Assembly (NCBI GenBank): GCA_947507965.1
Contig: CANNQU010000005.1
Coordinates: 22,884 to 86,883 of the forward strand
Length of the DNA stretch: 64,000 nt
Source: Bacteroidota bacterium
GTDB lineage: Bacteria; Bacteroidota; Bacteroidia; UKL13-3
Reading direction: 5' to 3'
The translations under genes and the position numbers were made by a program. A model generated the notes under the pieces. The model had not been told where the DNA came from, did no database searches, and saw only the letters and a list, made by a program, of their open reading frames with translations. Shown here one piece after another: positions 8,915-64,000 of this stretch (position 1 is the first letter of the stretch; the number at the start of each line of letters is the position of its first letter).

Positions 8915-10192
8915 TTAACGGCTAAGGTCTTGCATTCGATGAGAGTCGATTTTAATAAATATAAATAGAAGAATGGTAAAACTTAGGGTTGCCGAACCAC
9001 CATAACTAATAAAAGGCAAGGGGATGCCGATAATCGGTAATAAACCCATGGCCATACCCATATTGATCAAAAAGTGAGAGAATAGGATACATGCTAAAGA
9101 ATAGCCATACACTCTGTTATATCGAGATCGCTGTCGTTCCGATAAATAAACAATTCGACTAATAAGTGCGATAAATAATGTGACCACCATAAACGAACCA
9201 ATCCAACCAAACTCTTCAGCTATTGTACAAAATATAAAATCGGTGCTTTGCTCAGGCACATATTTTCCTTTGGTAATGGAGCCTTCAAGGTAACCTTTGC
9301 CCGAGAAACCACCGGAGGAAATAGCCATTAGCGAATTATCCTTTTGATAATCAACCCCACTTTTATCTACCTCTAATCCAAATAAACTTAAGATACGCTT
9401 CTGTTGATGAGGCTGCAAGTGCTTTAGCACGTAGGTTGTACTAGAAACAATTCCCATGGCGCTTAGCCATACGAAGAAAATAATCCAGATAAGCTTTTTG
9501 TAGCCACGAAAAAGCAATAATATCAAACCTCCCAACGCGGTAAGTAAGGCATATAAAATAATCGTCTTTACCAGCAATGCTGCAATACCTAGCACCATAA
9601 TCGCTGCTCCAATAGCCAAAAACAATCCGTTTAAACCTTCCCGGTAAAAAACTAAACTAAAAAAAATAAAAACCAAAAATGTTCCCGTATCATTTTGAAT
9701 TAAGACGAGCAAAGCAGGTACCGCAATGATGGCAGCAGCCTTTATCAAATTATCTCGTTTAGTAAGTTTAAAATTGAAGGGGCTTAAAAACTTTGCCAAG
9801 GCAAGTGCTGTGGCAAACTTTGCGAATTCACTGGGTTGAATTTTGAACTCACCAATTTTAAACCAGGCCTGTGCCCCTTTCGTATGATCACCTAGCACCA
9901 ATACAGCGATGAGTAAAACAATTACGGCCGCATAAATAAAATATGAAAAACCAAAGAAGAAACGGTATTCTACCGTCATAATCATGAAGGCAACAAAAAC
10001 CGCCGAACCAATAAATAACATTTGTTTGCCATAGTTTTTTGTTAAATCAAAAACATAATTTGTACCGGTTAAATTATAGGTGGAAGAATACACAGCCATC
10101 CATCCCAAAATAGTAAGTGCAGCATAAATCAATATGGAAAACCAATCAATGTTTCGTCCGTCGGAGATGCTATTATTTCTGGTGTTCATCAA
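8915..10192 (-). CDS. SEDS-family peptidoglycan glycosyltransferase (RodA/FtsW)
   Basis: 425 aa polytopic membrane protein with the conserved SEDS block SGGFSGKGYLEG...PEQSTDFIFCTIAEEFGWIGS. It is not in a dcw cluster, so rodA-like is more likely than ftsW. Confidence 0.8.
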   Translation of the reverse strand: MMNTRNNSISDGRNIDWFSILIYAALTILGWMAVYSSTYNLTGTNYVFDLTKNYGKQMLFIGSAVFVAFMIMTVEYRFFFGFSYFIYAAVIVLLIAVLVLGDHTKGAQAWFKIGEFKIQPSEFAKFATALALAKFLSPFNFKLTKRDNLIKAAAIIAVPALLVLIQNDTGTFLVFIFFSLVFYREGLNGLFLAIGAAIMVLGIAALLVKTIILYALLTALGGLILLLFRGYKKLIWIIFFVWLSAMGIVSSTTYVLKHLQPHQQKRILSLFGLEVDKSGVDYQKDNSLMAISSGGFSGKGYLEGSITKGKYVPEQSTDFIFCTIAEEFGWIGSFMVVTLFIALISRIVYLSERQRSRYNRVYGYSLACILFSHFLINMGMAMGLLPIIGIPLPFISYGGSATLSFTILLFIFIKIDSHRMQDLSR

Positions 10193-11461: not shown

Positions 11462-12292
11462 TTACTCTACAAGATGCCTCAAAGCTATAATAGATTTGGG
11501 CAGGATGAAAAAATAGGTGTTAAAACTTCGGGTTACCATCATCACGTTTTTTAGATTGAGACAAGTTTTCGAAATGAAAAACGTAATTGGCAACTCCCGA
11601 TGAAGTGATAAACGTTTTAGGGTATCATTAAAATATCCAAAAAGCTCCGATGTGTTATAATTTAAAATAGGTATTGACTGAAACTTGTATTCATCCATAG
11701 TCCCGGTATTGCTGGAAAGTAGCTCCACCTTTGGGATGATAAACGTCGTATCGGCAAACAATATATTGGGTAGTGAATACTCGATTTCTGCCATTCTTAT
11801 GATTTCTTTTCCCATTCCCGGTAATTTAGGCAACGACCACACCTTTTGGAAATTAGTCCGGTAATTGGATATCAATCCGGTCGACTCATCGTAACCCCAC
11901 CATCCTGTTTTGCTTAGGCAAATAAGGGTTGGCTTGGGTTTAATCAGCTGCGATAAATCGTATTGGTTTTTCTCTTTCAAAAAATCATCAAACACCGTAA
12001 GTCGTCCGGTGTTATAACAATACACGGCGATCTCGGTTGCCCCATTGCACTCCATACTACTCGCAATACCATAACGAATTAGACTCTGTGAAATTAAGAT
12101 CTTAAGGTTAGAGTCAACCTTGAGCAGGGTATTGTTTTCTGTGATTACAAATAAATTACCCATACCATCTGGCACAGCATATTTCGACGATATAACCAGG
12201 CTATCGGCCTGTGCATTCAAGGCTTTTTGTGTGAAAAGCATCAATGCACTGAGGACTATTACTCTAAAGATCAAGATCATATCTCTACCCAT
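11462..12292 (-). CDS. Hypothetical secreted protein (signal peptide)
   Basis: Hydrophobic N-terminal signal (ILIFRVIVLSALMLFTQKALNAQA) and no recognisable domain. It abuts the upstream GSCFA gene (stop/start adjacent), suggesting co-transcription. Confidence 0.4.
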   Translation of the reverse strand: MGRDMILIFRVIVLSALMLFTQKALNAQADSLVISSKYAVPDGMGNLFVITENNTLLKVDSNLKILISQSLIRYGIASSMECNGATEIAVYCYNTGRLTVFDDFLKEKNQYDLSQLIKPKPTLICLSKTGWWGYDESTGLISNYRTNFQKVWSLPKLPGMGKEIIRMAEIEYSLPNILFADTTFIIPKVELLSSNTGTMDEYKFQSIPILNYNTSELFGYFNDTLKRLSLHRELPITFFISKTCLNLKNVMMVTRSFNTYFFILPKSIIALRHLVE

Positions 12293-16592: not shown

Positions 16593-18062
16593 CTAATAAG
16601 AATACGTCGCCCCATCTTTACCATCCTTTATGGTGATACCTAAAGCTAACAATTGATCACGTAAGTTATCACTGGCGGCAAAGTTCTTCATTGCCTTGGC
16701 TTCTGCACGCTGTTGAAGTAGTATTTGCATCACCCCATTCAACATATCATTTTTAGAACTTACTTCTTCTTTTAACCCCAGTATATCGAAAATAAAATCG
16801 TGAAATATTTTTTTCAATTCGATTTTATCTGCAGCAGATATTTTCTCTCTCCCATCGTTTACATTATTAATAAACGTAACCCCTTCAAATAAGTGTGCAA
16901 TAGCAATAGGAGTATTGAAATCCTCGCTCATAGCACCTTCACACTTGGCACGAAGTGCCACCACAAAAGCCTCCGAATTCCCCTCCGTTTTCAATCCGTC
17001 AATTAAACGAAAGGCGTTCATAAGTCGAGCATAGCCCTTTTCGGCAGCTTGTAATGCGTCATTACTAAAGTCGAGGGTACTGCGATAATGACTCTGCAAC
17101 ATAAAAAAGCGAACAGACATAGGACTATAGCCTTTATCCAACAGGGGGTGAGACCCGGCAAACAATTCGTCGGGCAAAAAGCCATTTCCTGCACTTTTAC
17201 TCATGCGCACTCCGTTTACCGTTAGCATATTCGTGTGCATCCAATATCGTGCGGGTGAAATATTGTTACATGCGCAATTCTGGGCTATTTCATTGGTATG
17301 ATGTGTGGCAATTAAATCCATCCCTCCACCATGAATATCGAACGAAGTGCCGAGATATTTTTTACTCATGGCACTGCATTCAATGTGCCATCCGGGAAAA
17401 CCCATCCCCCATGGACTTTGCCACTGCATCAGATGTTCGGGCTTTGCCTTTATCCACAACGCAAAATCGAGCCGACCGTGCTTATCGTCCTGTCCACCCA
17501 GTTCACGGGTTCCATCCAGCAAATCGTGAATGTTTCTGTTGCTTAGAATCCCATAGTTATATTCTTTACTGTATTTTTCAACATCAAAATAGATCGTTCC
17601 ATCCACCTCGTATGCCCATTTTTTGCTGAGAAGTTCTTTTGTCATTTCTATTTGCTCCACAATATGACCCGTAGCGGTTGGCTCAATGCTTGGTGGCAGA
17701 CAATTAAACGCACGCATCACATCATGAAAATACTGGGTGTATTTTTGCACTATTTCCATCGGCTCCAGCTGTTCAATTTTCGCACGTTTTGCAAATTTGT
17801 CATCGCCTTCATCCAAATCACCTTCAAGATGACCGGCATCGGTAATATTACGCACATAACGTACCTTGTAACCGGCGTATTTCAAATAACGAAAAATCAT
17901 ATCGAAGGATGAAAATGTACGGCAGTTGCCTAAATGCAGGTAGCTATACACAGTGGGACCACACACATACATACCAACTAAATTGGGGTGCAATGGCGTG
18001 AATTCTTCTATCTTTCGGGAAAGGGTATTATATATTCTTAGAGCCTTTGGCATATATTGCAA
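16593..18062 (-). CDS. cysS: Cysteine--tRNA ligase
   Basis: The HLGNCRTF (HIGH-like) and RMSKSAGN (KMSKS) class I motifs, 489 aa with CysRS-like sequence throughout. Confidence 0.9.
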   Translation of the reverse strand: MQYMPKALRIYNTLSRKIEEFTPLHPNLVGMYVCGPTVYSYLHLGNCRTFSSFDMIFRYLKYAGYKVRYVRNITDAGHLEGDLDEGDDKFAKRAKIEQLEPMEIVQKYTQYFHDVMRAFNCLPPSIEPTATGHIVEQIEMTKELLSKKWAYEVDGTIYFDVEKYSKEYNYGILSNRNIHDLLDGTRELGGQDDKHGRLDFALWIKAKPEHLMQWQSPWGMGFPGWHIECSAMSKKYLGTSFDIHGGGMDLIATHHTNEIAQNCACNNISPARYWMHTNMLTVNGVRMSKSAGNGFLPDELFAGSHPLLDKGYSPMSVRFFMLQSHYRSTLDFSNDALQAAEKGYARLMNAFRLIDGLKTEGNSEAFVVALRAKCEGAMSEDFNTPIAIAHLFEGVTFINNVNDGREKISAADKIELKKIFHDFIFDILGLKEEVSSKNDMLNGVMQILLQQRAEAKAMKNFAASDNLRDQLLALGITIKDGKDGATYSY

Positions 18063-18353
18063 AAGTACGAAAAAGTACAGAGGTAAAAATCAGGGCTTGA
18101 ATCGAATGCCCCTTTCGAGGAAAACAGCGGCTATAGTAGTTACGGTTGAATCATCTCTACCATTTCATGATACGTAAAAAATGGACTTGGTCTGCCGAGC
18201 TTTCTCCTTCAAATTAAGCAAATACACGTATTAAATTTAAAAGAATCGAATTCTTGCAAGGTTTATGTGTGCCTCGAATCGCTATCTTCGCACAAGGAAA
18301 TACACCGGCTGACGGTAAAAATAAATAACCTCCATTTTACGTTTAATCAATTC

Positions 18354-20217: not shown

Positions 20218-22011
20218 ATGAGATTCATAATTACTTTCCTTTTGATTGCCATTGCTCTCGTAACACCAGCTCAAGACGAGGCATTAGCTAAACAATATTA
20301 TCAAAACGGAGAATTTGACAAAGCGGTGGTTGTTTACGAGAAAATTTATTCGAGAAAATTTGATGACGCAATCTATGAAAACTACTTTCTAAGTTTGCTT
20401 GCCTTGCGACAATATGAAGAAGCCCAAAGACTCGCTAAGAAGCAGGCGAAACATTTTGATGCAAATTTGAATTATATGGTGGATCAGGGTTATGCCTTAA
20501 TTCAAGGTAACAAGCAGGAAAAAGCCGAACTATATTTCGATAAACTGATCAATGAAAAGCACAAAGAAGCTACCTATTATTTAGTTTTAGCAGCGGCCTT
20601 TGTTCATCGGGAATTGTATGATTATGCAAAGAAGACCTATTTAGCTGCCCGTCAGAAACTTTCCAACGAGAATTTATTTCAAGCAGAACTAGCTACTTTA
20701 TACGCCGAAACAAACAATAAAGAAGGCACCATTAACGAGTTCCTAAATTTACTTGATTATAATGAAGGCATGCTTGATTATGTTCAGAATATGCTTCAAA
20801 GTTATATCACCCAACCCAAAGACTTTGAATTACTAAAATCTGCACTTAGCAAACGCACGAATAAATACCCCGATCGTATCATTTACACGGAACTATTACA
20901 ATGGTTGCTGGTACAACAGAAAAACTGGGATGCTGCATTTATTCAAGCGAAAGCTATTGATAAGCGGTTGGGCACCCAGGGAGACGCCTGTATGCGACTC
21001 GCTTGGTTATGCATTGAAAATGAAGTCTTTAATACCGCTTATTCCATTTACCAGTATGTCATTACCTTAGGTAAATACAAAATTAATTATTTGCCAGCAA
21101 GGGAAGGACTGCTCACCACCGCTGCGAAAAAAACATTTTATAGTGGTATTTATTCATCTGATGATTTAACAACTCTAAAGCAGGATTATTTAAACTTCCT
21201 AGAAGAATTTGGCAGCAACGAGAGCAGCGCCAATGTAATGAAAGACCTTGCTAAATTAGAGGCTTTTTATTTAGACGAGAAGACCTCAGCGATAACTATT
21301 TTAAATCAGATCCTTGTTTTAGGCAATGTGCGAGAGAGTTTTAAAGCAGAATGCAAATTATTACTAGGCGACATTAATCTACTTTCCGGCGATGAGTGGG
21401 ACGCGGCACTACTCTACGGGCAAGTGGATAAAGACTTTAAGGAAGACCCGTTGGGACAGGAGGCTAAATTTAGAAATGCAAAACTCAGCTTTTATCAAGG
21501 AAACTTTGTGTGGGCTCAGGCGCAGCTTGACATCTTAAAAACGGCTACCAGTCAGTTGATTTCAAATAATGCCATCGAATTAAGCTTACTTATTCAGGAT
21601 CATACACTCGACAGCAATTACGAGCCACTGGAGATGTATGCTGCAGCCGATTTATTAATTTATCAGAATAAATTTAAAGAAGCAATCAGCAAACTGGACA
21701 GCATCTCCATTCAATTCCCGGCTCATAGTTTGATTCATGTGATACTCTTTGCGAAAGGTAAAGTAATGGCAAAACAGCAAAACTACCTAAAAGCTATTGA
21801 ATACTATAAACAGGTATATGATAAAGCCCCTGATGATTTATTGGCCGACAATGCCATTTGGGAAATGGCACAAATTTATGAACAATCATTACTCGATTTG
21901 GAACAAGCAAAGCAATATTATCAGGATTTGATATTAAAATATCCCGGAAGCCTTTTTACCGTTGAGGCCAGAAAGCGTTTCCGCAAGCTCCGAGGCGACG
22001 TTCTTGACTAG
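20218..22011 (+). CDS. Tetratricopeptide-repeat protein, secreted
   Basis: Signal peptide (FIITFLLIAIALVTPAQ) and multiple TPR-like A/Y/L-periodic helices (AKQYYQNGEFDKAVVVYEKIY..., AIEYYKQVYDKAPDD...). 597 aa. Confidence 0.55.
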   Translation: MRFIITFLLIAIALVTPAQDEALAKQYYQNGEFDKAVVVYEKIYSRKFDDAIYENYFLSLLALRQYEEAQRLAKKQAKHFDANLNYMVDQGYALIQGNKQEKAELYFDKLINEKHKEATYYLVLAAAFVHRELYDYAKKTYLAARQKLSNENLFQAELATLYAETNNKEGTINEFLNLLDYNEGMLDYVQNMLQSYITQPKDFELLKSALSKRTNKYPDRIIYTELLQWLLVQQKNWDAAFIQAKAIDKRLGTQGDACMRLAWLCIENEVFNTAYSIYQYVITLGKYKINYLPAREGLLTTAAKKTFYSGIYSSDDLTTLKQDYLNFLEEFGSNESSANVMKDLAKLEAFYLDEKTSAITILNQILVLGNVRESFKAECKLLLGDINLLSGDEWDAALLYGQVDKDFKEDPLGQEAKFRNAKLSFYQGNFVWAQAQLDILKTATSQLISNNAIELSLLIQDHTLDSNYEPLEMYAAADLLIYQNKFKEAISKLDSISIQFPAHSLIHVILFAKGKVMAKQQNYLKAIEYYKQVYDKAPDDLLADNAIWEMAQIYEQSLLDLEQAKQYYQDLILKYPGSLFTVEARKRFRKLRGDVLD

Positions 22012-30776: not shown

Positions 30777-33700
30777 TTATTTTTTCTCCAATGCTTTGAA
30801 ATACTCTTTTACCTTTTGTTTGTAGTACGAGTTAAGGCTTGGAGAAACCGTTTTAAGATATTCTGCCTCTCTATTTTTCTGCTTGATATATTCTTCCATA
30901 GAAGGTGGAATACCCTGCGGAGGATCCTGCCCGGCGTGCGACTCCCGCTTATTGTCTTGATCTCGTTCACGTTCGGCTTTTTCGCTTTCTAATAAACGAG
31001 TTAAAATATCCTGTTGACGTTTTAAGGTCTCTGTTTCAAGTTGTTTATATACCAATTCTTTCTCTGTTTGTTCCATGAGTTCTTGTAATTTTTTCAAATC
31101 GCCAAGTTCATTCCCATTTCCACCTTCCTCTTTCTTCAGTTGATCTTGAATTTGTTGCAGATACCGGCGCAGAGCGGCTTGTTGCGCTGCCATCTTAGCA
31201 AATTCTTCACTCATCTGTCCGGGCTGCATTTGCCCGTCTTTCATTCGTTGCTTCATGTCACCCATTTTTTTGTTCAGCTCCTCCTGCATTTTACGCACCG
31301 AGGCCGCGCTGGGTTTCTTACTTTTGCCCGCCTTGCTTCCTTTGCCTCCAGGTTTCTTACAGCTGCCATTACCACTTTTCTTGCTCTGCTGCTGCTGCTG
31401 TTGTTCATCCTGCATTTGCTTTAAGGCTTCACTTAGCATCACGGCAAGATTATTTACGCTCGTCATTATATATTGTTGCTTGTTTCTTGCATCATCAATT
31501 CGACGTCCACCCATTGCCTTAATTGCCTCGTGCATATTGCTATTAATGGCACCAATTTCACGATTAATATACGCTTCAATTTTAATCTGGCGTTTACTGA
31601 GTGCAAAAAGACTATCCTCCACTATTTTTGCGTCATCCTTTAAATCTTTCTGACGTTGACCAGCAGCAACAAACTGAGGGTTATACGTATTTATCTTTTC
31701 CAGTTCTTTCATCAGTGCTTCTTGGTCGTAAGAAAGTTGAATAAGGTTTTCTAAAATGCCACGAAGGGTATTGATGTCCTCTTCCAACTCTTTTGATTCT
31801 GCTTCCTCCATGCCTTTTTCGATCTTGTCTTTCATCTCCTGCATTTTTTTGGCAGCATTCTTCTGATTCTTAGAAGCTTTATCTTTTTTGCCTTTCCCTA
31901 AGTTATCACTACTCTGTTGTTGTTCATTATTTATTTCTTCCTGTTCCTGCTTTGTGTCTTGTATATCTTTCGGATCTTCCAATGCTTTATTTTCCTTCTT
32001 CACTTCCTCCATTTGTTTTTCAATATCTGCCATTTTCTTGTTTAATTCATCCTGCTTCGCCTTCAGATCCTTCGGGTCGGTTTCCTTTTTCTCCGCTTCC
32101 TGCGCTAATTTCTCCTGTTCCTGTTGAAGTTTATCTAATTCATCCAACGCTTTTTGAATTTTCTCTTCCACTTTCATCTGTTTAAAAATTTCCAGATTCC
32201 GATCAAGCTCTTTCTCTAACTCTTTATCTGTCATTTTCATTTTTTCAAGCTGCTCCTGTATTTGATCTTTATTCCCTTGATCCAACATCTTCTGCAACTC
32301 CTCAAACATCTTCTTCATTTCGGGAGTCATTAGTTCTTCCATAAGGCGCTGCAATTCCTTTTGCTTTTCTAGAAGTGCCTCATTCGGTTTTCTATTTTCA
32401 TTTTGCTTAATATTATTCTGATCGTTCTTTTGAGTTACTTCATCTACCTTTTTTTGTAATGCCTTTTGCTTGTCAATCAAATCCTGAATCTGTTTTTTAT
32501 CTTGCCATGTTAGTGTCTTCTTATCTAAAAGTTTCTTTTGTAATTCATCAATTTGTTTTTGAAGTTCTTTCACTTCCTTAAAGTTATCATCCATTTTTTT
32601 CTCCACCTCTTTGTCCTGTACGTTGGCTTCTGCACGCATCTGGGCATTGCTTGGCGATTTATAAAACAGCAACTTACTACGGGTTGATTTTGCCCCATTT
32701 ACCCCATCATTATCCCAAATTTCAAAATAATACTCAATCTCCTCTTCTGCTGCAACATGTATTAAATTCAAATCGAATAGGTAGGAAAATTTCTGAGGTA
32801 ATGTAAAAGCATTGATATTGATGGGAATAGATATCAGTTGATCCTTTATATGCGTACTATCGGCTGATTTTAAAAAGCGATAGTTGAAGGTAAGTTTGGA
32901 AAAGCCATAATCGTCATCGATATCACCGGAGTAATAATATATTTTATTACTCAACGAATCTTTTATCTCTACTACACTTATGGCAGGCAGTTCATCGGCG
33001 ATAACACGGATATGAAAGGGAATCGAATCCTTTCCCTTGACCCTAGCATTATTGGTGTTAACGCTGTAATTTTCGTTCTTCAAAAATTTTCGAAAAAATG
33101 TAAAGGTCTCTGCATTTTTCTTCGTGGCCTGGATGGGAATACCATCAAAATTCAAAACCACTTCGTCAACATTTTCGGTGCCAAAAGTCCAGGTTACACT
33201 GCTACCAGCAGGAAGCACGAGGTCGCCGGTATTCTCAATTGTCTTGCTTTTTTGGGTAAGATAATCGGGATAAATAATTGACGCGGTAAAATTAAGTAAG
33301 GTTGGTTTTGCGAGTACCTCTATCTCGAAAAAATTACTTGAAAAACCGGAAGCAGAAAACTGGATAGAGGTCGTCTTTTGGATATTTCGGATGGGATAGT
33401 TAAAATGAAGGGCATCTAACTTTTCCATTTTATATTTATGACCGTCGAGCACGAGAAATACTTCTGCCGGAAGCTCCTCCCCTGACACTTTTAAATTCAC
33501 ATCAAAGTCTTCATGCTGTAAAACCTGTAATTTCTCATTTTCCAACTGAAAAGTAAAGGGTGCTTCTTTTTCAAAAAATTTAGTTGGATTGGTTAGCCTT
33601 AGCGTACTCTCTGTGATAATTCGTGAATTAATAAAGATTATTCCTAAAAAAAACAGAACCGAAGGAACGGCATATTTAATATATTTTTTGTTCTCCTTAA

Positions 33701-34142
33701 AGTTAATGGCATTACTAAATGGCACCGACTTCAGTTCCTGTATCTTTTGGTCGATGGAAGCATGAAGTAACGCACTATCGTTACTATTGGCCAGATGGTG
33801 AAGTTGCAGTGCATTTAATAGCTTGTCTTTGACGTCGGCAAAATGAGTACCAATAATACTTGCTGCCTGTTCATAGTTTATGGTATGGCTAAGCTTATAA
33901 AGTTTTGCCAATGGCGTAATGATATATTTTGATAAAATAAAAACGCCAATTACAAGATAGGACAACGTTATTGCTAAACGGAGATTGGAATTAAATTCCC
34001 CGTAATATTCCATAACGACAGCTACAACATAGGCCGTAAGTAAACCAGCAAACGCATAAATAGCACCACGTAACAATTGATTTTTATAATATTTACGTAT
34101 AAATGCATCCAGTTTCTGGATTAATATGCTATAATTATTCAA
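30777..34142 (-). CDS. Large membrane-anchored protein with ~550-aa K/E/Q/D-rich coiled coil and poly-Q/K-G-S low-complexity segment (possibly DUF4175-like)
   Basis: 1121 aa. Three predicted TM helices in the first 170 aa, then a beta-rich ~350-aa region, then an extreme charged heptad-like region (…KELQKQIDELQKKLLDKK…QQQQQQSKKSGNGSCKKPGGKGSKAGKSKKP…). The many antisense ORFs in the track over 31140-32185 are low-complexity artefacts of this region. Confidence 0.6.
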   Translation of the reverse strand: MNNYSILIQKLDAFIRKYYKNQLLRGAIYAFAGLLTAYVVAVVMEYYGEFNSNLRLAITLSYLVIGVFILSKYIITPLAKLYKLSHTINYEQAASIIGTHFADVKDKLLNALQLHHLANSNDSALLHASIDQKIQELKSVPFSNAINFKENKKYIKYAVPSVLFFLGIIFINSRIITESTLRLTNPTKFFEKEAPFTFQLENEKLQVLQHEDFDVNLKVSGEELPAEVFLVLDGHKYKMEKLDALHFNYPIRNIQKTTSIQFSASGFSSNFFEIEVLAKPTLLNFTASIIYPDYLTQKSKTIENTGDLVLPAGSSVTWTFGTENVDEVVLNFDGIPIQATKKNAETFTFFRKFLKNENYSVNTNNARVKGKDSIPFHIRVIADELPAISVVEIKDSLSNKIYYYSGDIDDDYGFSKLTFNYRFLKSADSTHIKDQLISIPININAFTLPQKFSYLFDLNLIHVAAEEEIEYYFEIWDNDGVNGAKSTRSKLLFYKSPSNAQMRAEANVQDKEVEKKMDDNFKEVKELQKQIDELQKKLLDKKTLTWQDKKQIQDLIDKQKALQKKVDEVTQKNDQNNIKQNENRKPNEALLEKQKELQRLMEELMTPEMKKMFEELQKMLDQGNKDQIQEQLEKMKMTDKELEKELDRNLEIFKQMKVEEKIQKALDELDKLQQEQEKLAQEAEKKETDPKDLKAKQDELNKKMADIEKQMEEVKKENKALEDPKDIQDTKQEQEEINNEQQQSSDNLGKGKKDKASKNQKNAAKKMQEMKDKIEKGMEEAESKELEEDINTLRGILENLIQLSYDQEALMKELEKINTYNPQFVAAGQRQKDLKDDAKIVEDSLFALSKRQIKIEAYINREIGAINSNMHEAIKAMGGRRIDDARNKQQYIMTSVNNLAVMLSEALKQMQDEQQQQQQSKKSGNGSCKKPGGKGSKAGKSKKPSAASVRKMQEELNKKMGDMKQRMKDGQMQPGQMSEEFAKMAAQQAALRRYLQQIQDQLKKEEGGNGNELGDLKKLQELMEQTEKELVYKQLETETLKRQQDILTRLLESEKAERERDQDNKRESHAGQDPPQGIPPSMEEYIKQKNREAEYLKTVSPSLNSYYKQKVKEYFKALEKK

Positions 34143-57762: not shown

Positions 57763-60700
57763 ATGATGAGATTAAAATTTCTAATAGCAGTAATTTTTTT
57801 TACAGGTATTAACGCCTTTGCGCAAACATTTAAAAGTTTCTCCCAGGATACCGGCGTTTACATCAGAGAGTTGGGAGAGTTTATGAATCAAGACAAAAGC
57901 GAGGAAGCGGGCAAAACATACCAAGCGTTTCTTACCGAATGGAACAAAAAGGTATTGACGGATGAACAAAAACGTTTCATCTTGCGTATCAGCAACAAAA
58001 TGCTACTCGAAAAGCTACGTGCTAACCCAGATTTTGTATCACTACTCAAAGCGCTATCGGCCTATTCAAGGCAAGATAAAGGAGAAGCTATTTTTGCAAA
58101 TTGGCAGAAAATAACGGATAAAACATTATCGGAAAATAAGAAGACGTTTAAAGATTTTCTCGACTTTTCGATTAGCCTCTTTGAAGACAATACTATTTTT
58201 TCTAATAATGCAAAAATTTGGCAATGTACGAGTGCCGATTACGAATTAAAATTCGATCGGGAACCGTATATCATATTCCATCATACCGACTTGAAAGGCT
58301 TCGCCAATGGCAATAACACCAAAATCTCAAATACTTCTGGAATCTATTATCCCAATAGGAAGCTATGGGTTGGTGAAGGTGGGAAAATAAACTTTCTACG
58401 AGTGGGCTTAGACACCAATAAGGTATGGGTTGATTTAGTGAATTACAAGGTGAACACCGACAAATATGAGTTCACCATCGATTCAGCATTTCTCACCAAT
58501 AAAGAGTATAAGATTGAAAATATTGCCGGGCGCCTTACAGAAAAGCTAGTTTCCACCAATGAAACATCCCATTTAAACTATCCAAAATTTCGTTCTTATA
58601 GCAACGATATTTTCATCGAAAATTTTGGCAAAGGAATGAAATATAAAGGAGGCTTTGGTATGTATGGGAAACAGATTGCTGGAATTGGAACAATCGACCA
58701 AAGGGCATCCTTCTCTTTTTATTATAAAGACTCGTTACGTTGTAAAATTGAATCGGTTGAATTTTTCATCTCTAATGAAAAAATTGCTGCAGAAGATAGC
58801 CGATTCAATGTTTTTATTGCGAAAGATTCCTTGTTTCATCCTAAAATGAAATTTAACTTCCTTCGAAAAGATAGAAAATTATCGCTCGCGCGTGGAGAGG
58901 AAGGCGTGCGATCGAGCCCACTCTATGATTCCTATCATCGTATTGAAATGTATGTCGATGAAGTTAATTGGCAGATTGATGGCCCAAAGATGGATTTTAT
59001 AATGAACACGAAAGACCAGTCGGCACGTTTTGAATCGTTAAGTTTTTTTAGAGACCAACGCTATGAGCAAATGCAAGGGGTATTAGATTACAACCCCTTG
59101 ACCAAAGTTGCACAGTTTTGTCGAATGCGAAGGTCTCCTGATTTTACCTTAGAAGAATTTGCTGCTTTTATGGGTGCCAAAGAAGAATATGTTTTGCCCT
59201 TTGTATTGCTTATGGCCGATAAAGGTTTCTGCAATTATGATATCGACAATAAAAAGATTCATGTTTATAATAAGGTTTACGATTATGTGAATGCACATAA
59301 TAACGTATCTGACTATGATATCCTTAAAATGGAATCGCTTATTGGAGCCCGACCCAATGCCACGATGAATTTCGTAAACTATGATCTAACAGTGGAAGGA
59401 GTGCCTAGGCTTCAAATTAGCGACTCACAAAATGTTTATGTGATATTAAACGATCAGAAATTGATTATTAAAAAAAATAGAGATATGGAGTTTGCGGGAA
59501 AGGTGCATGCCGGAAGATTCGATTTCTATGGCGCGGGATTCGATTTCGACTATCAGAACTTTCTCATTAAACTCAGTAATGTTGATTCCTTAAAATTTGC
59601 ATTCCCTTCCAGAGAAAAAGATGAGCTGGGTAGAGATCAACTGGTACGGGTAAACACCGTTTTACAAAATGTTTATGGCACCTTATATATCGACTCGGCA
59701 AACAATAAATCAAGCCGTATAAATTATCCTCAGTATCCTATTTTTAAAAGTGATAAAGGCTCCAACGTTTTTTACGACTACCCCACCACCCAAGGAGGTG
59801 CATACGTAAGAGAACGTTTCTATTTTAAGGTTGATCCCTTTACCATTGACAGTCTTGACAACTTCACAAGAGAAGGTTTGGTATTCGACGGTGAATTTAA
59901 ATCGGGTGGCATTGTTCCTGACTTTCGCCACCAACTTACCTTACAAGATGATTATTCGTTAGGCTTTAAAACCCACACTCCTGCTGGCGGCTACCCACTC
60001 TTCAAAGGTAAAGGAAGAGGAGATTTCGAAATGAGCTTGAGTAATTTTGGTTTCTTTGGGAATGGCTCTATAGACTACCTAACGACGCACCTCACTTCGA
60101 ATAAATTTTTATTCCTACCCGACTCGATGAATACCATAGCCGATGAGGTGGTCGTAAATAAGTCAGCCTTGTTTCCATCAGCAACCACTCATAGTGCCTA
60201 TGTCGATTGGCGTGCCTACCGCGACACCATGTATCTGTTTCAACAGAAAGAACCTTTCCTGATGTACGACAAGGTGGCAACATTGCTAGGCAACTTAATT
60301 ATTACTCCTAAAGGGATGGGAGGAGCCGGTACCATTTCCTTTGATGAAGCGGAACTATCCTCTAAAAACTTTTCGTTTTCAAACCATACCTTCAGCTCCA
60401 ATGTGGCCTCCTTTAAAATTAAGTCCATCGACCCTTCTAAATATGCCTTTAGTGCTACTAACGTAAAGGCATTTGTTGATTTTGAAAAACGTTATGCCGA
60501 CTTTAGATCCAACAAATCTGATGTTAATATTGAGTTCCCTTACAACCAGTATCGTGCCACATTAAGTGATATGACATGGAAAATGGATGAAAAGAAAATC
60601 ATATTGAATGCAGGAAAAACACAGACTCCCGAATCTTCTGTTTTCATCTCTACTTTGTATGAGCAGGACTCTTTGAATTTCATCTCTACCAACGCCGTAT

Positions 60701-62133
60701 TCGACCTTAAAACCTATATTTTAAATTGCAATAAAGTACCTTATATTTTTGTAGCCGACTCCAAAATAATTCCGGATAGTAACAAAGTAGTAATTAACCG
60801 AAATGCTCAGATGAATACCCTATACCGGTGTCTTCTAAAAACAGATACGGTAAACGGATTCCATAACCTATTCAACTGTTCCATAAATATCTTGGGAAGG
60901 CGCAATATGAGTGGTAATGGCTTTTACAATTTTACCGACAAACGTAAGAGTAAACAAATCATTTATTTTAATGAGATTGGCGTAAATGCAGAAAAACATT
61001 CCATTGCCAAGGCAACGATTAAAGATACCAGTAACTTTGTGATAAACAAACATTTCGACTTTAAAGGTGATATTGTTCTCACGAGTATCAACAAAAATTT
61101 AAATTTCAATGGCTATGTGCTCCCACTACATGAACAACGCCCTCAGAGCGTTTGGTTTCGTTTTAATGATGGTATCGATCAGGACTCGGTAAGGTTGAAA
61201 ATTGACGACCCCATCGATGCTGATAAAAATCCTTTGAGCATCGGCTTTAATGTAGCCAATGATTCAACGGGGATGTACACTTCTTTTTTCAGTAGAAGAC
61301 ATTCGTATAGTGATGATATGATATTGCTAGCCCGAAGTGGCAAAATGTACTATGATGATAATACAGGGGAGTTTAGGGTTGGTGATGATGATAAACTCTC
61401 CAAAAATTCTTATCAGGGCAGCATGGTTACCTTCAACGAACCTCAGAAAACAATTATTGGTGAAGGTCGAATTAACTTCAATACAAGCAGCGATAAATTT
61501 AAAACAAAGGCAGCAGGCATCATCACTAATAATTTGATGGATAGCAGCTATAGCCTTGACGTGATCGCCCTTTTCGATTTCATTCTGCCGAAACAAGCGT
61601 TGACGATGATGGCAGATAGCATTTATAATACGTCAAGAGATTTGCCAAACTTAATGAATGATCGTTACGTATTAAAAGTAGGGCTTGGGGAATTGGCCGA
61701 AGAAAAAAATTATACTGCTGTAATAAAAAAACTAGAAGAAAATTCGGAAGTAATGCTCGTTGATGAGTTCCAAAAAACATTGATGCTCACCGACTTGAAA
61801 ATGAGCTGGAAACGCCAAAACAGGGCGTACATAGCCATTGGAGGAATCGGTTTAAATTCTATTGATAACCGGACCATTGGAAAACGATTATACGGTAAAG
61901 TACAAATCACCAAAAAAAGAAGTGGTGATGTTACGGGTATCTATTTAGAAAGCAATGCCGACACATGGTATTATTTTAATTTTAAAGGAAAGACACTGAG
62001 TGTGTTAAGTAGTGATGAAAGTTTCAATAGGATCATTAAAGATAATATTTCAAAGGTATCGGATGAATTATACAGGCTTCAAATAGCCACCCTACGTGAC
62101 AAAACCGTTTTCCTGAAGTATTTAGAATACTAG
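57763..62133 (+). CDS. Very large (1456 aa) hypothetical secreted protein
   Basis: Cleavable-looking signal peptide (LKFLIAVIFFTGINAFAQ). Beta-rich, N/D/S/Y/F-rich composition throughout. No catalytic motif recognised. The start is 7 bp after prmA. Confidence 0.5.
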   Translation: MMRLKFLIAVIFFTGINAFAQTFKSFSQDTGVYIRELGEFMNQDKSEEAGKTYQAFLTEWNKKVLTDEQKRFILRISNKMLLEKLRANPDFVSLLKALSAYSRQDKGEAIFANWQKITDKTLSENKKTFKDFLDFSISLFEDNTIFSNNAKIWQCTSADYELKFDREPYIIFHHTDLKGFANGNNTKISNTSGIYYPNRKLWVGEGGKINFLRVGLDTNKVWVDLVNYKVNTDKYEFTIDSAFLTNKEYKIENIAGRLTEKLVSTNETSHLNYPKFRSYSNDIFIENFGKGMKYKGGFGMYGKQIAGIGTIDQRASFSFYYKDSLRCKIESVEFFISNEKIAAEDSRFNVFIAKDSLFHPKMKFNFLRKDRKLSLARGEEGVRSSPLYDSYHRIEMYVDEVNWQIDGPKMDFIMNTKDQSARFESLSFFRDQRYEQMQGVLDYNPLTKVAQFCRMRRSPDFTLEEFAAFMGAKEEYVLPFVLLMADKGFCNYDIDNKKIHVYNKVYDYVNAHNNVSDYDILKMESLIGARPNATMNFVNYDLTVEGVPRLQISDSQNVYVILNDQKLIIKKNRDMEFAGKVHAGRFDFYGAGFDFDYQNFLIKLSNVDSLKFAFPSREKDELGRDQLVRVNTVLQNVYGTLYIDSANNKSSRINYPQYPIFKSDKGSNVFYDYPTTQGGAYVRERFYFKVDPFTIDSLDNFTREGLVFDGEFKSGGIVPDFRHQLTLQDDYSLGFKTHTPAGGYPLFKGKGRGDFEMSLSNFGFFGNGSIDYLTTHLTSNKFLFLPDSMNTIADEVVVNKSALFPSATTHSAYVDWRAYRDTMYLFQQKEPFLMYDKVATLLGNLIITPKGMGGAGTISFDEAELSSKNFSFSNHTFSSNVASFKIKSIDPSKYAFSATNVKAFVDFEKRYADFRSNKSDVNIEFPYNQYRATLSDMTWKMDEKKIILNAGKTQTPESSVFISTLYEQDSLNFISTNAVFDLKTYILNCNKVPYIFVADSKIIPDSNKVVINRNAQMNTLYRCLLKTDTVNGFHNLFNCSINILGRRNMSGNGFYNFTDKRKSKQIIYFNEIGVNAEKHSIAKATIKDTSNFVINKHFDFKGDIVLTSINKNLNFNGYVLPLHEQRPQSVWFRFNDGIDQDSVRLKIDDPIDADKNPLSIGFNVANDSTGMYTSFFSRRHSYSDDMILLARSGKMYYDDNTGEFRVGDDDKLSKNSYQGSMVTFNEPQKTIIGEGRINFNTSSDKFKTKAAGIITNNLMDSSYSLDVIALFDFILPKQALTMMADSIYNTSRDLPNLMNDRYVLKVGLGELAEEKNYTAVIKKLEENSEVMLVDEFQKTLMLTDLKMSWKRQNRAYIAIGGIGLNSIDNRTIGKRLYGKVQITKKRSGDVTGIYLESNADTWYYFNFKGKTLSVLSSDESFNRIIKDNISKVSDELYRLQIATLRDKTVFLKYLEY

Positions 62134-62249: not shown

Positions 62250-62616
62250 GGGGCTGACCGGTTTTGACGGGTAGTGTAACGTAGGTGTAAGCATGCAGAG
62301 ATTTGTTTGCGTTCTCTTTAATCAATACATTCAACATTTAGTTGGCAACAACTACGCATTGGCTGCTTAATCTGGATAGATTAGGACGCTCGCACTCACT
62401 AAGTTTCTAAATCGTGCCGAGACTTGTATAGTGGGTTCACCAAGCATGGTATTACTCGCGAAATGGGTTTTGATAGCGAGTAGATTATATAAAACCTACG
62501 TTTATGTTTCTGGTATGCGGCACGCCAAACACAAACCGACAACTAAGTACAGCTAAGCATGTAGAAAACATTTGAGTTCCTATTTCGGACTCGGGTTCGA
62601 CTCCCGACAGCTCCAC
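62250..62616 (+). ncRNA. ssrA: tmRNA (ssrA)
   Basis: 5-prime GGGGCTGACCGGTTTTGACGG matches the tmRNA acceptor/D-arm start. The 3-prime GGACTCGGGTTCGACTCCCGACAGCTCCAC is a T-arm plus acceptor (CCA not encoded). An internal tag reading frame at 62344-62370 encodes G-N-N-Y-A-L-A-A-stop (ggc aac aac tac gca ttg gct gct taa), the classic degradation tag. Confidence 0.85.
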
Positions 62617-62649
62617 TTTTTACGATTTTAAACGTTCGCAAAAGTTCAA

Positions 62650-62676
62650 AACCCGCCACTAGAGCGGGTTTTTTAT
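62650..62676 (+). terminator. Rho-independent terminator after ssrA
   Basis: AAACCCGCcactaGAGCGGGTTTTTTATTT: an 8-bp GC-rich stem (one mismatch tolerated) followed by a T6 run, ~35 nt after the tmRNA 3-prime end. Confidence 0.5.
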
Positions 62677-62773
62677 TTCACCTGTTCGCTCGAGTTCATA
62701 AAAAAACACTATTTTCGCTCTCTATACTTCACCTAAAAACCTCAATCCCGCCAAAAGGTGAAGTAAAAATATT

Positions 62774-63988
62774 ATGGATATAACTACAGGACTCAGTTTT
62801 AAATTTTACTTACAAACCAATAAGAGCAGGGGCGACGGGAAACATCCCATCTATTTACGTCTCGTTTATAAAAGCAAAAAGATCGAAATTGCCACCGATT
62901 ATGATTGCGAAGAGCAAGACTTCAATATTCAGCAGCAAAGAACCATAAGGAACCATGCTATCAATGAGGGTCTGACCAAAATGGAGGCAAAAATCCATAG
63001 TTCGGTAAGGAAACTCGAAGATGCAGGGGCTTTTATCGACCTTTCTGCTATAAAAGACGAATTGAAGGGGAAGAGTAAGTTTGATAAAAAACTGTTGGAG
63101 TATTATAACGAACATCTAAAATATGTCCAGAGCAATCCACAACTGGCAAAAAACACCAAGAATAGATATCTCGATACCCAGAAGCATTTGATCAAGTTTA
63201 TTAAGAGCATAAAGAAACGAAGTGATGTTTCGATTGAAAGTGTAGACTATAAATTCATCAGTGACTTTGATCTGTTTCTTTTAAATCAGCCATCAGGCAA
63301 AACCCTAACAAGCACCCTGCATAGAAATACTGCCAATAAGCATATTACGCGATTTAAAACGGTGATCTTGAAAGCTTTCAATGAGGGGATTATTAAAAAA
63401 AACCCATTCACGAATATTCGTGTGAAATATACCCCTACAACAATCACATATTTAACTCAGGAGGAATTAGATATGCTTGAAGCGCATGATTTAAGCGGGA
63501 ATGAAAGCCTTCAAAAATCCAGAGATATTTTCTTGTTCAGCTGTTATACCGGACTACGTTTCAAGGATGCATTGAGCTTAGAAATGGATAAAATTGTTTT
63601 CTCCAAAACCAACGGGAACAGTATCAGACTAAAACAGGAGAAGACAGATGAATACGTTGAAATGCCCGTCTTGAAACAAACACAAGCCATAATTGACAGG
63701 CATGATGGAGAGTACCGTAAAATTACCGGTAAGGTTTTACCACAAATAAGTAATCAGAAGGTGAATGCATTTTTAAAAATGATTGCTGACGCGGTTGGAA
63801 TTAAAAAAAGACTCACCCATCATATGGCCCGACATACATGTGCGACAACGGTATTGCTAAGTCAAAATGTGCCACTTGAAGTGGTAAGCAAATGGCTGGG
63901 GCATAATAGCATTAAGTCAACCCAGGTGTATGGCAAGATCACCAATAAATATATGATGGAACATGCAAAAAGACTGAACGAAAAATAA
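62774..63988 (+). mobile_element. int: Tyrosine site-specific integrase (Bacteroidota phage-integrase family), first gene of an element integrated at ssrA
   Basis: 404 aa. The C-terminal catalytic region is HHMARHTCATTVLLSQNVPLEVVSKWLGHNSIKSTQVYGKI (R...H-x-x-R...Y with LGH and QVY). An N-terminal SAM-like/arm domain is present. It starts ~160 bp downstream of the tmRNA 3-prime end. Confidence 0.85.
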
Positions 63989-64000
63989 AAAAACAAATAT

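Follow-up and report, generated by a model that had tools for sequence, protein, structure and literature searches.

Near the right-hand end of a 64-kb stretch of DNA from a Bacteroidota bacterium (contig CANNQU010000005.1 of assembly GCA_947507965.1; the whole 64,000 nt are referred to here as the window), the gene for transfer-messenger RNA (tmRNA), ssrA, is followed by the gene of a tyrosine integrase. We conclude that positions 62250-63988 very probably represent the left attachment site (attL) junction of a genomic island, inserted by a tyrosine integrase into the 3' end of the tmRNA gene. The evidence consists of the tmRNA gene itself, an intact integrase, a family-wide link of its relatives to tRNA and tmRNA genes, a mosaic of sequence relatedness at the junction and the cargo genes found behind the integrase in relatives. 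A first-pass annotation of the sequence had placed a tyrosine integrase of 404 aa about 160 bp behind the tmRNA gene and reading away from it. Indeed, ARAGORN and Rfam place the tmRNA gene at 62250-62616 and Pfam the integrase at 62774-63988, and we measured 157 nt from the tmRNA 3' end to the ATG of a 404-aa integrase gene on the same (plus) strand. The integrase gene is transcribed away from ssrA and into the island, and its stop codon lies only 12 nt before the end of the window, which contains no cargo.

The tmRNA gene and the integrase

The integration target is a one-piece tmRNA gene on the plus strand (62250..62616), found with both ARAGORN and the Rfam model RF00023. The full-length Rfam match (62250-62618) scored 140.8 bits with an E-value of 1.6e-56, the gathering score of the model being 47. 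According to ARAGORN, it encodes the tag peptide GNNYALAA and is the sole tmRNA gene of the entire window. A Bacteroidota-type -7 box (TAcCTTTG) can be read from the sequence ~15 nt upstream, and this motif is also conserved in the related loci L001 and L005. CCA is not encoded. The 3' sequence of the gene is GGTTCGACTCCCGACAGCTCCAC (62594-62616), of which no second copy was found in the window when up to three mismatches were allowed.

The integrase gene (62774..63988, plus strand) was delineated from the list of open reading frames (ORFs), from Pfam and PHROG matches and from an alignment of 26 sequences (A2). Its product has the Pfam domains Arm-DNA-bind_5 (30.7 bits, with a cut-off of 22.6), Phage_int_SAM_5 and Phage_integrase, all above cut-off, which correspond to the arm-binding, core-binding (SAM_5) and catalytic domains of a three-domain integrase. 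The catalytic residues R262, K290, H350, R353, H377 and Y386 are all present, and the six positions are invariant or nearly so in alignment A2. The protein also matches PHROG integrase families; among solved structures, only distant Xer/IntI matches were found, which were not informative. An identical protein (P0300) exists at NCBI, and the integrases at L001, L004 and L005 share 98%, 97% and 88% amino-acid identity with it, all of them encoded behind a tmRNA gene. The hosts of the homologues are Bacteroidota.

Integrase relatives adjoin tRNA and tmRNA genes

To place this arrangement among its relatives, we collected 81 loci encoding related integrases, namely 80 from GTDB representative genomes, found by a scan with the integrase alignment, together with L001. 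At 62 of the 81 loci, the integrase gene is preceded on its own strand, at a distance of 124-371 nt, by a tRNA or tmRNA gene (a tmRNA gene at 12 of these 62), and at eight of the 19 exceptions the upstream sequence is too short to judge. The relatives adjoin many different tRNA genes. Because this linkage is shared by 62 of 81 relatives, the adjacency of ssrA and the integrase in the window is not due to chance, and the linkage points to an integrase clade that is specialised for the 3' ends of tRNA-type genes.

A search for the right attachment site (attR) within 10 kb over 62 related loci returned one true case, L013, where a tmRNA-adjacent integrase is 37% identical to that of the window. 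This locus contains an imperfect 71-nt direct repeat (9799-9869 and 20925-20994) made up of the last 21 nt of ssrA and the following terminator, and the two copies bound an 11.1-kb element encoding a primase-helicase, a McrBC fragment and surface proteins. This repeat is an attL/attR pair and as such direct evidence for the mechanism in a relative.

Mosaic ancestry of the junction

Differences from the window were counted segment by segment against L001 and L005 (alignments A3 and A4). The tmRNA body (62250-62548, 299 nt) differs at 44 positions from each of the two, that is by 15%, and is followed by a block of 73 nt (62549..62621, plus strand) that is without variation among the window, L001, L004 and L005, the counts being zero against both L001 and L005. 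Further to the right, 14 differences from L001 and three from L005 were counted in 62622-62735, 38 and 190 in 62736-63373, and again 38 and three in 63574-63988. The last 415 nt of int are therefore >99% identical between the window and L005 despite the 15% difference in the tmRNA body.

By these counts, the sequence relationships change at the ssrA 3' end, and as the switch falls inside 62549-62621, this block must hold the recombination crossover. The core of the crossover most likely corresponds to the final ~21 nt of ssrA, TTCGACTCCCGACAGCTCCAC (62596-62616), an exact position that we infer by analogy with the repeat at L013. The DNA to the right of the ssrA end is a recombinant of two element lineages. 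Between the window and L001, identity is only 77% for the 1456-aa protein encoded on the left flank, compared to 98% for the integrase, and L005 has the same int-cargo backbone behind its tmRNA gene but an unrelated left flank. Together with the segment differences, these contrasts show that the DNA right of ssrA has a history of its own, with recent horizontal exchange.

The tmRNA genes themselves deserve a separate remark. Only ~2 differences separate the tmRNA bodies L005:9476-9840 and L001:4575-4939, although the left flanks of the two loci, with a luciferase-like gene and a 1455-aa gene, respectively, bear no relation to each other. The window, in contrast, has its left flank in common with L001 and a tmRNA body that is 15% different. 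Either a rearrangement at ssrA or a joint movement of the tmRNA with the island might account for this mismatch.

The spacer between ssrA and the integrase

A terminator scan, an inverted-repeat search and RNA folding all point to an intrinsic terminator hairpin, AAAACCCGC-N7-GCGGGTTTT followed by a T run, at 62648..62676 on the plus strand. It is predicted to end the tmRNA transcript and, being located to the element side of the crossover, would be a contribution of the island, like the regenerated 3' end of ssrA. Two 27-nt imperfect direct repeats (consensus ATTTnAnnnGTTCGCnnnAGTTCAnAA; 62625-62651 and 62675-62701, plus strand) were found by repeat search, one on each side of the terminator and 70% identical to each other. 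Accessory proteins may bind to these repeats in the att arm, although a family of two copies could also be due to chance.

The same search revealed three copies of TAYTTCACCT, in direct orientation at 62674-62683 and 62725-62734 and inverted at 62756-62765, the second and third of which make up an inverted repeat of 10 bp shortly ahead of the integrase start codon. TTCACC occurs at least twice in the spacer between the tRNA or tmRNA gene and int in nine of the nine closest relatives, regardless of the target gene; in total, 43 copies were counted in 12.5 kb of spacers, compared to six in 12.4 kb of DNA that precedes the tRNA genes and served as control. On this basis, the TAYTTCACCT copies are candidate arm-type sites for the N-terminal arm-binding domain of the integrase.

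Island content in relatives

Behind related integrases, the island is visible for 18.3 kb at L001/L086 and for 7.7 kb at L005, in both cases to the contig end. At L001/L086, int is followed by a 354-aa protein without known family; a 102-aa protein that has no family match of its own (a 62%-identical paralogue of it in the same island matches HTH_17 weakly); a coiled-coil Zn-ribbon protein and then a DUF433-FtsK-gamma protein; and a 516-aa Fic protein matching the SoFic defence model at 4.6e-22, after which comes a PRiA4_ORF3 protein. The island also contains an operon of low guanine-plus-cytosine (GC) content (32%), with a GT4-radical-SAM/SPASM fusion and a nucleotidyltransferase (NTase)-tyrosine-phosphatase fusion, as well as an RtcR/PspF-like AAA ATPase and an SRA-HNH nuclease. 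At the contig end lie genes for another small protein (104 aa), again matching HTH_17 weakly, and for a primase-like protein (BT4734_N/PriCT_1). In its proximal backbone, L005 is 83-86% identical to L001 at the nucleotide level; it has HipBA where L001 has the operon, and continues with a paralogue of the 102-aa gene up to the contig end. Since these variable genes are flanked by conserved modules, they are situated inside the island.

A Pfam census of the 58 ORFs behind eight related integrases gave a comparable picture, the 25 commonest families including HTH_17, NikA-like, DUF3987, BT4734_N, PriCT_2, type I restriction, Fic, HipA and insertion sequence genes. No phage structural proteins were among these 25 families. 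Nor were any capsid, terminase, portal, tail or lysis genes present in the 18 kb of L001/L086 or the 7.7 kb of L005. NikA-like relaxosome accessory proteins account for two of the 58 ORFs, and neither a relaxase nor an origin of transfer (oriT) was identified in the available sequence (L001 and L005 to their contig ends).

Some features of these loci are of interest in their own right. The low-GC operon is a conserved six-gene unit (L086:4481-10989 and L088:7177-13683) that encodes the GT4 glycosyltransferase-radical-SAM/SPASM fusion, a small kinase-like protein (weak VakA match), the NTase-tyrosine phosphatase fusion, two uncharacterised proteins and one with WG repeats. The L001 island carries this unit as cargo, yet in another metagenome-assembled genome (L088) it stands in a non-island context, and its NTase-phosphatase fusion has hundreds of Bacteroidota homologues. 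Short intergenic sequences of 45-120 nt recur at 79-91% identity within and between the L001 and L005 islands (L001:11341-11424 and 12141-12279; L005:15508-15630 and 17984-18135), where they lie on either side of the PRiA4_ORF3 gene and of the cargo slot; they may represent a small repeat element or sites at which cargo is exchanged by recombination. Finally, the stretch from tRNA-Arg to the tmRNA gene at L005 (2301-9296) encodes a second Fic protein, ArsR, thioredoxin, rhodanese, ArsP and DsbD. No integrase is encoded there, and the stretch may be what remains of another island.

Proposed mechanism and alternative explanations

In the mechanism that we propose, the attachment site (attP) of the circular element would duplicate the final ~20-70 nt of ssrA, together with a terminator. 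On recombination, the chromosomal ssrA would be split, and the copy carried by the element would restore a complete, terminated tmRNA gene, to be followed by the element arm with its candidate TTCACCT arm sites and by int reading into the island. The displaced 3' fragment of the native ssrA would then lie past position 64000 as the mark of attR. With close relatives as a guide, the island would span at least 18 kb and consist of an int-proximal backbone (354-aa, 102-aa, coiled-coil, SoFic-like Fic and PRiA4_ORF3 proteins), a variable cargo slot (HipBA in one relative; the GT4/radical-SAM operon, AAA ATPase and SRA-HNH nuclease in the other) and a distal module with HTH_17 and the BT4734/PriCT primase. 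The content and the right end of the window's own island, like its present-day mobility, are inferred. The attL-int junction in ssrA suggested in the first-pass annotation is supported by the tRNA/tmRNA linkage of the relatives, the L013 repeat, the switch in relatedness and the cargo behind integrases that are 98% and 88% identical.

Several results weigh against such an insertion. The ssrA 3' repeat was absent from the 18.3 kb downstream of int at L001/L086 and from the 7.7 kb downstream of int at L005, in each case up to the contig end. The search for attR in L001, L004, L005 and L086 used a 23-mer of the ssrA 3' end with up to three mismatches and junction k-mers of 10-16 nt, and gave only chance-level 9-11-mers; no junction-derived match of 12 nt or more was present downstream of int at L001/L086 or L005. 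No unoccupied ssrA site was found in close relatives. Three other lineages keep the pair of PrmA and the 1456-aa protein and then have different genes; as no tmRNA gene follows the 1456-aa gene there, these are not empty attachment sites (attB) and synteny simply breaks. In addition, the shift in GC content that had been anticipated after 62774 did not materialise, the integrase gene having a GC of 0.375 against 0.389 +/- 0.018.

Decayed copies also exist. A scan of Joint Genome Institute (JGI) metagenomes with a tmRNA-body pattern gave two short contigs only, the second of which ends 53 nt after the tmRNA gene. On the first, at L084:776-1250 (JGI Ga0114969_10072959), a related tmRNA gene precedes a terminator of the same type and a TTCACCT...AGGTGAA hairpin; after these come only a 31-codon integrase stub (MTITTGLSFKFYLQTQKCRLDGKCPIYIRIF, then stop) and, on the minus strand, an unrelated gene of 265 aa. 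This arrangement looks like the deletion scar of a sister element. In protein P0298 (NCBI MCX6190005.1, 90% cluster of P0001), the last ~35 residues are swapped for unrelated sequence and the WLGH...Y catalytic region is thereby missing; it is probably an inactivated integrase copy. L084 and P0298 show gain and loss, and hence turnover, rather than fixation, and they are at the same time compatible with the window copy being a remnant.

Such a remnant, that is a real junction whose island has decayed and become immobile through the loss of attR and/or of excision functions, is nonetheless unlikely. It would fit with the absence of attR from 18.3 kb in the closest relative and with the decay products in related genomes, of which L084 retains 31 codons and P0298 lacks the region of the catalytic Tyr. 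However, the integrase of the window is full length with its six catalytic residues, and the candidate arm-type sites in the spacer are intact. The three differences from L005 in the 3' 415 nt of int, set against a 15% divergence of the tmRNA body, argue for recent horizontal exchange. Islands of >18 kb are normal, and attR may lie further out.

The first-pass annotation had spoken of a genomic island or prophage, and it is the former that stands. A temperate prophage in ssrA is very improbable, even though ssrA is a classic prophage attachment site and PHROG matches link the integrase to integrase families and the distal primase-like protein of the L001 island to phage primase/helicase. No phage structural, packaging or lysis genes were present in the islands of relatives, which were read as far as their contigs go (18 kb in the longest case), and neither a relative of the integrase nor a match to the ssrA 3' end was found among 2.9 million IMG/VR contigs. 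HTH_17, BT4734/PriCT primase, NikA-like, Fic, toxin-antitoxin and restriction genes are instead typical of integrative mobilizable elements of Bacteroidota. With accessory and mobility genes, without phage structural genes and without relatives in IMG/VR, the element is thus a genomic island, possibly mobilizable, and not a prophage.

It is scarcely credible that the integrase should be a chromosomal recombinase (Xer-like or regulatory), domesticated long ago, which stands beside ssrA by chance: JGI names its homologues 'integrase/recombinase XerD' and its gene shows no GC shift, but its scores with the XerC and XerD NCBIfam models are 75 and 71 bits, far below the cut-offs of 335 and 330, it has an arm-binding domain of the type found in mobile-element integrases (PMC8138268), its relatives stand beside many different tRNA genes, its identity to the L001 integrase far exceeds that of the neighbouring gene product (98% compared to 77%), and its sequence is a recombinant mosaic. 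The low Xer scores, the arm domain, the mosaic and the varied tRNA neighbours effectively refute this candidate.

Going beyond the insertion of an island into ssrA, we tentatively propose, as a possibility that we would not call likely, an undescribed family of islands that are specific for ssrA, recombine actively and reside in uncultured Bacteroidota of fresh water, with a conserved backbone and a dedicated cargo slot. The backbone of this family may comprise three proteins without known family (the 354-aa, 102-aa and coiled-coil Zn-ribbon proteins) as well as PRiA4_ORF3 and the SoFic-like protein, and the slot may shuttle HipBA, the SRA-HNH nuclease with the AAA ATPase, and the GT4/radical-SAM/NTase-phosphatase operon among hosts whose tmRNA genes are 15% apart. 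In a less likely variant, the tmRNA gene itself would travel with the island, which would explain the near-identical tmRNA bodies and unrelated left flanks of L001 and L005.

Genes to the left of ssrA

Housekeeping genes lie to the left of ssrA in the window, among them those for PurD and PrmA, together with genes for a DUF502 protein and a subtilase. The 1456-aa protein, which is conserved and without Pfam family, is encoded at 57763-62133 on the plus strand and has homologues P0241-P0289. Its N-terminus is signal-peptide-like, and its gene always stands directly after prmA. The breakpoint in synteny comes after this gene, the downstream gene order being different in each lineage examined. 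A 1121-aa ORF at 30777-34142 on the minus strand has only a borderline DUF4175 match, and the interval 31001-33000 inside it shows a strong bias in strand composition, with AT skews of -0.39 and -0.29 and a GC skew of -0.22; its product may be a low-complexity or repetitive protein.

Comparison with known systems

An earlier article on genomic islands in tRNA and tmRNA genes is that of Williams (2002, Nucleic Acids Research (NAR) 30:866), cited in PMC6764341. The mechanism proposed here matches the general model of tRNA/tmRNA-gene islands in Islander (Hudson, Lau and Williams 2015, PMC4383910). As in those islands, an intact tmRNA gene stands beside a tyrosine integrase gene, its 3' end is restored by the island, and crossover takes place in the 3' portion of the gene, between T-loop and 3' end. 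The model also predicts that a 3' fragment is displaced to the opposite end of the island, and such a fragment is present in the relative L013. The present case differs in its host, an uncultured freshwater Bacteroidota lineage, and in that attR is seen only in L013.

Among Bacteroidota, NBU-type integrases target the 3' ends of tRNA genes (Smyshlyaev et al. 2021, PMC8138268). The integrase of the window resembles the IntCTnDOT subgroup (NBU1 IntN1, NBU2; PMC8138268) in its Bacteroidota host and in combining arm-binding, enlarged core-binding and catalytic domains, and like the integrases of NBU1, NBU2 and Tn4555 it has the first catalytic Arg. Insertion at the 3' end of a tRNA-type gene is a further point in common with NBU1 and NBU2, and the loci of its relatives contain genes like those of mobilizable elements (HTH_17, primase, NikA-like). 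NBU1 and NBU2 differ, however, in targeting tRNA-Leu or tRNA-Ser instead of ssrA, and the available sequence of the relatives yielded no relaxase or oriT. This apparent likeness is one of domain architecture and of the Bacteroidota hosts of homologues.

The 10K island of Riemerella anatipestifer (PMC6764341) has a 53-bp attL/attR direct repeat that consists of a tRNA 3' end and a hairpin with T run, and its integration and excision were shown experimentally to need only integrase and att (PMC6764341). The composition of this repeat is the same as that of the 71-nt repeat at L013 and of the conserved block in the window. The Riemerella island differs in its target, tRNA-Arg, and in its size, 10 kb compared to at least 18 kb in relatives of the window island. 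The vcr islands of Dehalococcoides (PMC3146451) are similar in that a single-copy tmRNA gene is a recurrent hotspot for variable cargo with a conserved integration module. Their hosts are unrelated, however, there is no evidence of close integrase kinship, and their tandem arrays were not seen here.

Significance

The junction marks the end of the core chromosome and the start of horizontally acquired DNA. The arrangement is common and well understood and involves no new mechanism, so its value lies mainly in annotation: accessory or defence genes of the source genome are to be sought past position 64000, and the matching region in close relatives contains SoFic-like, SRA-HNH, toxin-antitoxin and radical-SAM genes. 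From the mosaic integrase it is also evident that islands of this kind recombine and are passed between freshwater Bacteroidota that are themselves fairly divergent.

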